The notes under the pieces are model-generated. The model was not told where the DNA came from. It saw only the letters and a program-made list of their open reading frames with translations, and ran no database searches. From a virus: a stretch of 64,000 nucleotides of DNA. A program made the position numbers and the translations under genes. The stretch spans positions 11,421-75,420 of the IMG/VR virus record IMGVR_UViG_3300017989_005036. The stretch is one strand, 5' to 3'. Numbering within the stretch: the first letter of the stretch is position 1; each line of letters begins with the position of its first letter. Shown one piece after another: positions 31,563 through 34,238 of the stretch.

Positions 31563-32267
31563 TTAACAACCGTCTTCAAATTCGCAGCCAAATTCGTATT
31601 CAAAAAAACGTACTGTGTCATCTGTGACATCTTTCTTGTACAAAGTAGGATCAAATTCACATTCTTTAGACAAGCGTTCTATGTATGGTTTCACAAAAGG
31701 TGAAAGCATGACATAAATCATTGAAATTTTACCCTGCATGATCCAGAGTTTGAAATAACCATTGTCTATGAATTCTGCAATTTTGCTTTCTGTGGGTTGT
31801 CCTTCACACCTTTCATAAACAAATTTTTTCGTCCTTAAAAGTTCACGATTAAGTTTAGTGTCAATCACTGGAGGAGGTTCTTTGTGATTGACTTGAGCCA
31901 TCTTTTTATCGTAAAGTCTCTTCCAGATTTTCCAACGAATCCATGCTTTGTCACCACACAAAGTGTTGATTTCCATGTAACCTTTGTATGCCTTTAAAAC
32001 AGTCAGGTTTGCTGTAATATACAGCGGCATTTCTTCTGCTGTGAGCAGACCTCTGGTTTCTCGTCGAAGTTTCCAGCAGTAGCGGAAAAGATGAGAGGTT
32101 CTTGGATCTCTTTTCTTTGGAAGCTTGTTCCTTCTTCGCCATTCTGCGGTCTTTAGGTTATTTGGAGTGTGTTTTTCGACTTCTTTCTCCCAAAGAAGGG
32201 CAATTTTGTACGTCTCCGCTTCAGGAGTCGTCATGTTCCATTGGAAGATTGGGTCGTATTGAGACAA
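31563..32267 (-). CDS. hypothetical protein divergent from ncRNA/polA
   Basis: 234 aa ORF with AAGGAG RBS. Confidence 0.65.
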   Translation of the reverse strand: MSQYDPIFQWNMTTPEAETYKIALLWEKEVEKHTPNNLKTAEWRRRNKLPKKRDPRTSHLFRYCWKLRRETRGLLTAEEMPLYITANLTVLKAYKGYMEINTLCGDKAWIRWKIWKRLYDKKMAQVNHKEPPPVIDTKLNRELLRTKKFVYERCEGQPTESKIAEFIDNGYFKLWIMQGKISMIYVMLSPFVKPYIERLSKECEFDPTLYKKDVTDDTVRFFEYEFGCEFEDGC

Positions 32268-32340
32268 AATTTACTCCTTTGGCGGCAATCATAGCAACGA
32301 AAAAGATAGGATGCAACAGAATTATCTATCGATATTAGTG

Positions 32341-32369
32341 TTGCAGAACTTAACTGATTTTACTATGAT
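32341..32369 (+). promoter_or_regulatory. sigma70-type promoter
   Basis: TTGCAG-N17-TATGAT. Confidence 0.6.
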
Positions 32370-32375
32370 GTTCGT

Positions 32376-32770
32376 TGAATTACTGTGAAGTTACGTTACT
32401 CCGATGAGAAGGCTTTGATAGTCGCTGGACTTGGAGAGAAAACCATAGGGAGGCGGGTGGTTCTTACCGTGCAACAGCAGACTTTACAAGAGTCTAAGGC
32501 TTACTCCCTGTACCGAGGTAATCCTTATGAGACGCCCTCAGTAGCGTTGTCTAACTTAGAACTTTAAGTTGGGTTAGAGGGCACCTTTAGACGAACTCAT
32601 AAGGTTAGCAGGGCAAACAACTATCTTCGAAAACTCGCCATTGTTGTGAGCAAGGTGCGGTACGCCATGAAATTATCATGAGTGAACCGTTTGGGATCGA
32701 GGTACGCACTGTACCTTCTCTATTTGTCCCCGGAAACAAGGAACTTATATTAGTTCTTTATTTTCTTTTA
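32376..32770 (+). ncRNA. structured ncRNA candidate (~390 nt)
   Basis: promoter upstream, nested helices (ccttatgag/ctcataagg, gccctc/gagggc, ctaactta/taagttgg, tagggag/ctccctg, agact/agtct), hairpin plus T-run at end. Confidence 0.5.
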
Positions 32771-32921
32771 CTTTGTTCATTAACAACGCTACTTGGTATG
32801 CGCAGAGAAAACTTAAGTAGCTGAATTGACTTTGAAAAACTCCTCTTCCAAGATCTTTTCGATCTTGTTATCTTGTTGCTTCAATCGAAGGAGGGTTTTG
32901 GGATATTGGTGGAATTTTTTG

Positions 32922-34238
32922 ATGAGCAAACTCTATGAAGCAGCATGGCACTTGGGAGACTTGCTGGAAAATTCCACCAGAGCTTATCTGCGGGTGGAAC
33001 CTGAATTTTTGGATTATTCCATTCATAAACCCGGCAAGATCATCATTGAAGGCAAGGGCCGAGTTGAAATCGAATTGAATCGCAATAATGTTGCTCAGGT
33101 TGCTGGCATGTTGGAAGCGACGATTTTTGACAAAGAACAGCTTCCGGTTTTGTTGTGTTACAACATCAAACCACTTTTTAGTTATTTTCGTTTTTATCTC
33201 CAAAGAGAGATTATCCCGTCCACGGCTATCGTAGACCTCAATGTCATCGAAAGCTTCCTGAACCTTAATAAAAAACGGCCAGAAAATTTAGTAGAAGCGA
33301 TAAATAGATCAGAGGTGGCATCCAAATACAAAAGTTGGATCAATGTGTACAAACAAGTTCATCTCCCCTTCATTTTACGGGTCATGCCGTCCATTGAAAC
33401 GAACCCGTTGCTCGATACGGCAGACAAAACACCAAGATACCCATACTATGAAATTGAAGGGCAAGTCAGTGGTCGTTTGAATTGTCTCAAGAAATTCAAC
33501 AAAGGTTATTTGCCACACAATCTAAGTCTTGAACAAAAACAAAAATTGAAACCCAGAGGAGATGCGAGAATATTTTTCTCAGCAGACTACCGTCACTGTG
33601 AGGTTACAGTTCTTCAATGGTTGTCTAAGGACGAAGTCCTGAAAGGAATCATAGAATCAGGTGAAGATTTACACTCTGAAATTTTTCGGATCATTTTAGG
33701 GGAAAAATGCGATACTCCTAAGAAAAGAAAAATATCCAAGAGAATGTTTCTTCCAGTCATGTATGGATTGGGAGGAAAAGGTTTGTCCAAGATGCTGGAA
33801 GTCTCAGAAGAAGTGGGATTCGAGATAGTAGACAGAATACATCGAAAATTTGTTACTGCATCAAGGTGGATGCAGGCCCAACAGGATAAAGCCAAAGAAA
33901 AAGGCATGACCATTGACTGTTTGGGAAGACCCCGTAAGTATGCGGAAAATGAATGGTACAAAGCACGCAACCATGCAGTCCAAGGTCCAGCCGCCTCAGT
34001 TTGTGCTGAGAAAGCAATTCAACTACATAATGATCTTATCCCTACTGGGGGTAGAATTTGTTATACAGTTCATGATGGATATGCTTTAACATGTCCTGTT
34101 CAAGAAGCAAAAACAATGCCTGAGATCATTTGTGGGGCTTTGGAGTCCGAGTCTAAATTATGTCCGGGCTTGAACATGGGAGTGGAAATATGTTATGGTA
34201 AGAGCCTTGACCAAATGAAGGTCTTGAAGGGAGGGTAA
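32922..34238 (+). CDS. short family-A DNA polymerase (degenerate exonuclease, thumb apparently missing)
   Basis: motif A SADYRHCEV, motif B RKISKRMFLPVMYG, motif C TVHDG, SGRL, NHAVQG.AA. Confidence 0.85.
   Translation: MSKLYEAAWHLGDLLENSTRAYLRVEPEFLDYSIHKPGKIIIEGKGRVEIELNRNNVAQVAGMLEATIFDKEQLPVLLCYNIKPLFSYFRFYLQREIIPSTAIVDLNVIESFLNLNKKRPENLVEAINRSEVASKYKSWINVYKQVHLPFILRVMPSIETNPLLDTADKTPRYPYYEIEGQVSGRLNCLKKFNKGYLPHNLSLEQKQKLKPRGDARIFFSADYRHCEVTVLQWLSKDEVLKGIIESGEDLHSEIFRIILGEKCDTPKKRKISKRMFLPVMYGLGGKGLSKMLEVSEEVGFEIVDRIHRKFVTASRWMQAQQDKAKEKGMTIDCLGRPRKYAENEWYKARNHAVQGPAASVCAEKAIQLHNDLIPTGGRICYTVHDGYALTCPVQEAKTMPEIICGALESESKLCPGLNMGVEICYGKSLDQMKVLKGG

Follow-up and report, generated by a model that had tools for sequence, protein, structure and literature searches.

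A candidate family of large structured RNAs encoded beside a short family-A DNA polymerase in huge phages

The locus and its neighbours

The viral DNA analysed here (the window, 64,000 nucleotides (nt) long) is taken from the 75 kb IMG/VR record IMGVR_UViG_3300017989_005036, which is only 15% complete by CheckV, and is therefore regarded as a piece of the genome of a huge phage. The largest internal stretch of the window without open reading frames (ORFs) of at least 90 amino acids (aa) lies at 32268-32825 and measures 558 nt, or 654 nt when counted to the polymerase ATG at 32922. An earlier model-made reading of the letters alone (the sequence-only reading) had picked out this stretch as the longest non-coding gap, which is borne out when ORFs of at least 90 aa are masked. 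On one side it is flanked by a divergent 234-aa gene on the minus strand (31563..32267), and on the other by a short family-A DNA polymerase gene on the plus strand (32922..34238), whose 438-aa product matches Pfam DNA_pol_A (PF00476) at 6e-27 in its C-terminal half only. Downstream of the polymerase lie a 185-aa gene and then a DnaB-like helicase gene, forming a replication module. Comparison with related loci indicates that window positions ~32377-32803 on the plus strand are the gene of a structured non-coding RNA of ~430 nt, a predicted new RNA family.

Linkage of the element to a polymerase clade

Homologues of the polymerase are numerous (433-459 aa, 42-68% identity) and occur on contigs of up to 693 kb. 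Thirty homologues were aligned, and 14 viral and 37 metagenomic loci were collected. Wherever the upstream DNA sufficed, the layout of the locus was constant, with the divergent gene (~240 aa) and the polymerase separated by 530-970 nt that are poor in ORFs. An nhmmer search seeded with the window's gap found the element in five loci immediately, with E-values (E) of 4e-9 to 2e-7, and after one iteration found it in 35 of the 37 polymerase loci whose upstream sequence reaches 600 nt or more (36 of 37 with filters off). The polymerases of the loci that carry the element are 43-68% identical in protein sequence. The sole locus without the element is that of the most distant polymerase, with 35% identity. 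The element is present in one copy in the window, and in one copy in the relative G001 (458 kb, 91% complete).

Within the collections searched, the element has a single context: it lies directly upstream of a short family-A DNA polymerase of one clade and has the same orientation. A scan of 2.9 million viral contigs (IMG/VR) with the motif CCGGGTRRRTCTTACCGG detected it in no other context; three new loci yielded by this motif were set aside as chance matches, having no RNA profile match and no polymerase. The same motif gave 93 matches in 596 Gb of prokaryotic genomes, compared with ~140 estimated by chance, and none of these fits the RNA profile beyond the motif itself. Neither the polymerase clade (by profile search) nor the RNA is present in 185,579 prokaryotic species genomes. 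An exact 25-mer scan and a single-protein scan of the viral contigs gave no match, nor did 50,697 phage records when searched with the gap by blastn. The RNA and its linkage to the polymerase clade are real.

Comparative evidence for a folded RNA

The fold model contains about twelve helices, arranged as P1/P1a, a three-way junction of P2/P2a/P2b, P4/P3, and P-C around a variable 3' domain, together with two long-range pseudoknots, PK-A (from the P1a loop to the segment after the conserved block GGUUAGCAGG) and PK-B (from the P3 loop to the 3' end). It was built on a MAFFT alignment of 25 distinct sequences, from which RNAalifold unaided returned P2 and P2a, a portion of P2b and the core of PK-B; the remaining helices were identified by eye before being counted. 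Folded singly, the sequence gives unremarkable scores (z = -1.7 for the plus strand and -1.9 for the minus strand), and the evidence for structure is therefore comparative, one sequence being insufficient for the claim.

The sequence-only reading had proposed a search for homologues upstream of related PolA genes, combined with covariation analysis, and this comparison reveals a conserved structure, in which 57 of 63 pairs have changed on both sides, compared with 41 in shuffles. Over the 63 pairs, which belong to 11 helices, 79.9% of alignment cells are paired, against 64.0% in shuffles and 33-43% with slid partners, and covariation scores 0.438. Shuffles score 0.194, with 0 of 500 as high as the real alignment, and slid partners 0.09-0.14, so that compensatory changes go beyond both the shuffled and the slid controls. 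A permutation test of duplex energy, which is less alignment-dependent than column counting, separated cognate from permuted strands with p<=0.0002 for P1, PK-A, PK-B, P-C, P4, P3 and P2, and control segment pairs were not significant. A test of longest-run complementarity with G-U pairs allowed was discarded because its background was too high.

Most of the helices first proposed from the single sequence are retained in this model. Helices 32523-31/32596-604, 32534-39/32577-82 and 32446-52/32504-10, and the gatagt/actatc pairing (32417-22/32620-25), are present and covary in relatives. The proposed helix 32550-58/32565-73 is also present in this sequence, but has a one-base overlap with a stronger long-range pairing, while gtgcggtac/gtacgcac and gagaagg/ccttctc are present in this sequence but have no matching pairing in relatives (by eye, uncounted). 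It had further been argued that G-U pairs favour RNA over DNA. The plus strand is indeed favoured, but modestly, with 28 G-U and 19 A-C exceptions in otherwise well-formed helices; 9 of the 19 A-C exceptions are in PK-B, and P2a, P2b and P3 together have 11 G-U versus 0 A-C.

Natural variants of the element were found in contigs from four public DNA runs. In a strain of ~99% identity, A>G changes at 32476 and 32481 both convert A-U to G-U on the plus strand. In a variant contig of ~83% identity, two pairs of changes are compensatory, namely 32413 C>T with 32424 G>A in P1a, and 32450 G>A with 32506 C>T in P2. This contig is 943 nt long, is ~83% identical over window positions 32323-32557 and comes from the same samples, being present in the two runs that are the likeliest source of the window's DNA, suggesting that a second related phage co-occurs there.

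Relation to known RNAs and small ORFs

A scan with Rfam 15, which we take to include GOLLD, ROOL, HEARO and OLE, gave no match at gathering score anywhere in the 64-kb window, including for RNase P, transfer-messenger RNA (tmRNA), 6S, group I and II introns and riboswitches. At E up to 10, the region 32200-32950 gave only three chance-level matches to eukaryotic or archaeal small RNAs (E 7-10), and ARAGORN found 0 tRNA or tmRNA genes in the window. The statement of the sequence-only reading that the RNA is not a tmRNA, 6S RNA or intron is thus matched by Rfam 15 and, for tRNA and tmRNA, by ARAGORN. That reading had also named a 60-aa ORF at 32385 as a possible alternative source of conservation. 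The peptide is not conserved, and tblastn with the 60-, 44- and 48-aa ORFs of the region gives nothing below E 0.04 in relatives, although the nucleotide sequence is conserved. The proposal of a novel non-coding RNA is therefore upheld by strong covariation, a conserved promoter, no conserved ORF and no Rfam match, and neither Rfam 15 nor the searchable literature describes the RNA family.

Architecture of the RNA

All elements of the fold lie on the plus strand, and the loops and junctions are strongly conserved across relatives. P1 (CTCC 32399-402 / GGAG 32433-36) encloses P1a in an element spanning 32399..32436, and its strands vary yet remain complementary among relatives (for example CCTTAG/CTAAGG, CACCAG/CTGGTG and AGTCAGA/TCTGACT). 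The P1a hairpin (GGC 32411-13 / GCT 32424-26) has a 10-nt loop, and 3 of its 3 pairs have changed on both sides. From this loop, GATAGT 32417-22 pairs with ACTATC 32620-25 to form PK-A, with 6 of 6 pairs changed on both sides, 89% of cells paired, and ~16 different complementary sequence pairs among relatives. A conserved single-stranded AAAACC junction (32439..32444) is followed by the three-way-junction domain (32446..32510), which is composed of P2 (32446-52/32504-10), P2a (32453-56/32467-70, 97% paired, with the conserved 10-nt loop GUGGUUCUUA) and P2b (32476-83/32491-501), all with every pair changed on both sides.

The highly conserved junction CCGAGGUAA (32513..32521), which contains the invariant columns A136, G138 and T139 (numbering of the first sequence), is followed by P4 (32523-31/32596-604, 8 of 9 pairs changed on both sides). 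P4 encloses P3 (32534-39/32577-82, 5 of 6 pairs) and P3a, a local hairpin at ~32551-58/32565-72 that is seen in the single-sequence fold only and lies outside the covariation count because the region aligns poorly. PK-B connects AGTAGCGTTGT in the P3 loop (32540-50) to ACAACGCTACT (32783-93), with 9 of 11 pairs changed on both sides and a duplex energy of -16.2 kcal/mol for cognate strands versus -9.4 kcal/mol for non-cognate strands (permutation p<=0.0002). In the conserved block GGUUAGCAGG (32603..32612), columns T225-G231 are invariant or near-invariant, and the first GG closes P4.

Further downstream, a tentative hairpin P5 (CTCGC/GTGAG, 32634..32650), drawn by eye and from single-sequence folds, shares 4 nt with the 5' strand of P-C. 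At this position, a short hairpin with a GAAAUU-containing loop is seen by eye in relatives. The long-range helix P-C pairs TGAGCAAGG (32647-55) with CTTTGTTCA (32771-79), with 7 of 9 pairs changed on both sides and 80% of cells paired, the family consensus being TGATCATAG for the 5' strand and CTATGATCA for the 3' strand. Inside P-C lies the variable 3' domain (32656..32770), whose local hairpins include 32732-45/32752-65, which has a purine-rich 5' strand opposite a U-rich 3' strand. When this domain was folded sequence by sequence in 25 relatives, a common layout appeared, of one variable hairpin and one long hairpin with a U-rich final strand. The last conserved block of the element is the 3' tail (32794..32803, family consensus CCCUUAUGCGC), and the nhmmer profile match ends at 32807. 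Three further candidate pairings were dropped: that of UGCGC in the 3' tail with an internal GCGCA block showed no compensation where relatives had changed either side, and those of CUUACC in the P2a loop with GGUAAG in the junction, and of AACC with GGUU, showed no covariation.

Promoter, leader and ends of the RNA

The sigma-70-type promoter proposed by the sequence-only reading is present at 32341-32369 on the plus strand (TTGCAG 32341-46, a 17-nt spacer, and TATGAT 32364-69), with a predicted start near 32377. Its position is kept in nearly all relatives, which have TTG(C/A)nn-N17-TAnnnT at the equivalent site upstream of P1; a stricter promoter scan missed it because the -35 hexamer matches only 3/6 positions. 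The RNA is therefore presumed to be made early by the host RNA polymerase. The only minus-strand promoter-like site in the region runs from 32389 to 32362 and is directed at the divergent gene. Between the promoter and P1 lies a 5' leader (32377..32398, plus strand) with three (A/U)UAC(U/A)G-like copies (AUUACUG, GUUACG and GUUACU, by eye), and relatives (e.g. L003, L016, L019 and L040) have 2-4 direct copies with a period of ~11-13 nt at this place (by eye). Elsewhere in the window, a 10-nt form of the motif shows no enrichment (6 matches versus 4.7 expected). Proteins might bind the copies as an array on the RNA, or the copies may act in the DNA as sites of operator or iteron type.

The sequence-only reading had placed the 3' end of the RNA at a hairpin with a T-run (32732-32765 onward). 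This hairpin is instead located inside the RNA, which extends to at least ~32803, because the downstream segments 32771-79 and 32783-93 covary with the upstream segments 32647-55 and 32540-50. A terminator-like hairpin, CAAGATC/GATCTTG followed by a T-rich run (32849..32877, plus strand), lies further downstream and is not conserved in relatives. From its sequence, it may be a terminator of the RNA or an attenuator ahead of polA.

The polymerase and the divergent protein

The start of the polymerase is most likely ATG 32922 (MSKLYE...), judged by its fit to the family N-terminus. In most relatives, a -10-like TAnnnT (for example TAAGAT, TATGAT, TAGAAT or TATAAT), often with TGn, ends 6-7 nt before the polymerase ATG, and in most there is no Shine-Dalgarno run within the 60 nt upstream (L002-L043), suggesting a separate promoter and a leaderless polymerase mRNA. 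The window deviates in this region (32900-32924): it has TGGAAT or GATATT at the place of the hexamer, and its GGAGG run lies upstream at too great a distance to serve 32922. In view of the hexamer found in most relatives, the polA promoter of the sequence-only reading (TTGACT-N17-CAAGAT, 32826) is doubtful.

The last conserved block of the RNA is less than ~110 nt from the start of the polymerase match in 17 of 25 distinct loci. The spacers differ among relatives, most lack a strong terminator, and no conserved expression platform is seen in them. In 8 distinct loci, ORFs lie between the RNA and the polymerase: two loci carry an HNH-like one, three a small acidic protein, and three an ORF of 150-195 aa. 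The HNH-like ORFs are Cys-rich and have the appearance of HNH or homing endonucleases (L023 1239-2462 and L035 1798-2619). The small acidic proteins (L034 2199-2465, L028 2252-2461 and L019 1160-1315; 51-88 aa as called) share DLxRAAxESEDH and belong to one subclade.

The relative G001 and the more distant phage LR756511.1 each encode a Pol III alpha-type gene and a Toprim/DnaG-like primase elsewhere in the genome, with a single Pfam DNA_pol_A match and no family-B polymerase in either, suggesting that the short PolA is an accessory enzyme. The motif-A Glu E235 is invariant in the alignment of 30 homologues. Aligned by eye with Pol I, it is presumably the steric-gate Glu against ribonucleoside triphosphates, and the enzyme would thus be a DNA polymerase. 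The Pol III alpha-type Pfam match in G001 is in two pieces ~5.4 kb apart (C1:120666-120974 and 126354-126866), in separate frames of 875 and 1352 aa, and a split gene, or one broken up by an intein or insert, is possible.

The 234-aa protein is the conserved partner on the other flank of the RNA (43-48% identity in relatives), and has no Pfam or PHROG family. Its AlphaFold model is all-helical with a predicted local distance difference test score (pLDDT) of 84. Foldseek found nothing at E<=0.001, the weak rows being mostly sigma-factor-like and well below significance, and the best VIA-align match (Z 5.0) is at background for helical proteins.

A polymerase-like protein in the slot of the RNA

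In the sister clade represented by LR756511.1 (595 kb), homologues of the 234-aa protein (33% identity, E 7e-30) and of PolA (29% identity) are encoded in the same divergent layout. No RNA lies between these flanking genes, and one loose motif match elsewhere in the genome (one mismatch) is at the level of the reversed-pattern control. The slot instead contains a 387-aa ORF (L082 1829-2992, plus strand), the stop of which overlaps the polymerase start, and the 387-aa protein is predicted from this overlap to be translationally coupled to the short PolA.

The 387-aa family has 184 members at E<=0.001, of which one is named a family-A palm protein by UniRef, and carries no Pfam annotation; its invariant residues are Asp217, Lys280 and His352-Asp353-Ser354. 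With the AlphaFold model (pLDDT 90.6) as query, Foldseek returned only family-A polymerases (152 matches at E<=0.001, best 5e-6, probability 1.00). Alignment of the protein to the polymerase alignment by hhalign was not significant (probability 0.25%), so that the placement in family A comes from the fold search alone. Motif A lacks the steric-gate Glu (by eye), and the HDS of motif C is, we assume, as in T7-type RNA polymerases; these residues hint at RNA synthesis. In G001, which has the RNA, the 387-aa family was not found by a search whose positive control worked. The polymerase-like gene is thus an apparent syntenic replacement of the RNA in the sister clade.

Possible functions

By analogy with known systems, the RNA may work with the adjacent accessory polymerase to start DNA replication, as a pre-primer or an RNA subunit, a reading that we favour tentatively and hold to be possible rather than probable. 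As a folded pre-primer, its 3' part would be extended by the short polymerase, after which the Pol III-type replicase would take over, following the logic of ColE1. As an RNA subunit, it would position the primer-template for a polymerase that is said to lack the thumb. In favour are the strict synteny of the divergent 234-aa gene, the RNA and the polymerase, with the helicase downstream, and the minimum of the cumulative GC skew of the window, which falls exactly at the locus, also the point at which the genes switch strand. The same reading is favoured by the Pol III alpha-type and primase genes of G001, a genome with one copy of the RNA, in which the short PolA would be accessory in the manner of Pol I in ColE1 replication, by the motif-A Glu that the polymerase retains, and by the polymerase-like gene that occupies the slot in LR756511.1. 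It is distinctly unlikely that the RNA is an integral subunit of the polymerase, which would then be a ribonucleoprotein DNA polymerase; such a subunit would replace the thumb's grip on the primer-template or carry an internal primer or template, and the sister clade would use a second miniature polymerase-like protein instead.

Several observations weigh against a role in starting replication. The V-shaped GC skew of the window is explicable by gene orientation alone, and in the 458-kb G001 the cumulative skew rises almost monotonically, with a minimum near 55 kb compared with the RNA at 76.1-76.6 kb. The GC-skew check for an origin, proposed in the sequence-only reading, thus points to the locus in the window but does not single it out in G001. 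Since a DnaG-type primase is present in relatives, there is no priming gap for the RNA to fill, and no R-loop-prone sequence or antisense regulator is evident at the locus. The ornate pseudoknotted fold with its conserved junctions exceeds the needs of a primer by far, and the replacement in LR756511.1 is a single comparison.

A cis-acting leader is an unlikely alternative in which the RNA would be the 5' untranslated region of the replication-operon mRNA, sensing a metabolite or replication protein and controlling read-through or translation of the polymerase and helicase. This would account for the constant placement of the RNA ahead of the polymerase and in its orientation, mostly at the short distance given above and with no strong terminator in the spacer of most relatives, and the conserved junctions and loops could well form a pocket for a ligand or protein. 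In the window, the CUCCUCUUC segment could also pair with the Shine-Dalgarno-like run GAAGGAGGG (by eye). However, the -10-like box before the ATG points to a separate promoter, and a leaderless message would lie beyond the RNA's gating, which makes a leader role less likely. Such a role also fits poorly with the ORFs that intervene in 8 distinct loci, with the lack of a conserved expression platform, and with a size of 430 nt and two pseudoknots, which is well beyond known leaders. The RNA could also be autonomous, with a job of its own as a multimer like GOLLD/ROOL, an anti-defence decoy or a ribozyme, and be a neighbour of the polymerase by synteny only; we consider this improbable. PK-A and PK-B could then be intermolecular contacts, as in phi29 pRNA, covariation being blind to the difference between intra- and intermolecular pairing. 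In favour, the RNA has its own conserved promoter, and the size, pseudoknots and conserved loops resemble those of large phage RNAs of unknown function; the tie to the polymerase, as read from sequence, is one of linkage. Against autonomy, the exact place is kept in 36 of 37 loci, no other context appeared among the 2.9 million viral contigs, and the more distant clade without the RNA has a polymerase-like gene in its slot.

Finally, the pairings might act in single-stranded DNA at an origin, as a primosome-assembly or single-strand initiation signal. Watson-Crick covariation is identical for DNA and RNA, the locus is a strand-switch point inside a replication module, and short direct repeats with a period of ~11-13 nt adjoin it. 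A DNA-level element is nevertheless very unlikely, given the promoter ahead of the element, conserved in position and orientation, the excess of G-U over A-C (28 versus 19 in well-formed helices, and 11 versus 0 in P2a, P2b and P3), the natural variants that turn A-U into G-U on the plus strand, and the two long-range pseudoknots and conserved loops, which are typical of folded RNA.

Comparison with known systems

A close functional analogy for the favoured role in starting replication is the ColE1 pre-primer RNA II and Pol I. Both systems have an RNA of several hundred nt co-oriented with replication (transcription by the host being predicted here) and an accessory family-A polymerase beside a Pol III-type replicase, with a helicase gene downstream in the present case. 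By contrast, the phage RNA has no sequence or Rfam relation to RNA II, no antisense RNA I-like partner appeared in the promoter and Rfam scans of this locus, the fold is far more intricate and conserved, and the phage encodes its own adjacent polymerase. Telomerase RNA with TERT, and the msr/msd RNA of retrons, are likewise dedicated structured RNAs that adjoin and are co-inherited with a polymerase gene. The enzyme here is a family-A DNA polymerase (PF00476), not a reverse transcriptase, and a template region, a priming guanosine or inverted repeats on the flanks were not recognised at the locus.

Structured RNAs directly upstream of a same-strand replication gene include the T4 gene 32 pseudoknot and the T4 gene 43 operator, and riboswitch leaders are similarly placed. 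Compared with these, the phage RNA is about ten times larger, has its own promoter, is separated from the polymerase by inserted ORFs in 8 loci, and has no conserved expression platform. GOLLD and ROOL, large ornate RNAs of phages and prophages, are often found near tRNA genes. Like the present RNA, they are phage-borne, several hundred nt long and of unknown function, with many covarying helices and pseudoknots. They differ in that the RNA described here has no Rfam 15 match, lies in the context of a polymerase and replication module, and shows nothing that suggests multimers; for GOLLD and ROOL, cryo-electron microscopy structures of RNA-only complexes are reported (bioRxiv 10.1101/2024.12.08.627333).

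The polymerase itself matches the description of divPolA1/divPolA2, the extra PolA proteins of large phages, in length and context and as an accessory enzyme. In the sections of Yutin et al. that treat them (Virol J 2024, PMC11348598), the thumb of these proteins is truncated or missing and their exonuclease domain is inactivated, and they occur in phages that also have a regular replicase, with divPolA1 beside replication genes; for the present enzyme, loss of the thumb is taken from that description only. An associated RNA is not mentioned in those sections. Of the phage records that they name, none is among the best 20 matches to this polymerase; of these 20, only LR756511.1 covers at least 80% of it.

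New here are a 3' extension that includes P-C and PK-B, variants from natural populations, a polymerase start that looks leaderless, and the apparent replacement of the RNA by a protein in a sister clade. Large intricate RNAs are rare in bacteria and phages, and most of those that are understood are ribozymes or ribonucleoprotein cores. The present RNA is tied, locus by locus, to a stripped-down DNA polymerase in the replication module of huge phages, and this tie makes it a concrete and testable entry to the start or control of their replication. If the RNA does work with the enzyme, a form of RNA-dependent DNA polymerase machinery would exist beyond telomerase and retrons. The apparent exchange of an RNA gene and a polymerase-like gene at one slot provides a natural experiment on what the RNA supplies.

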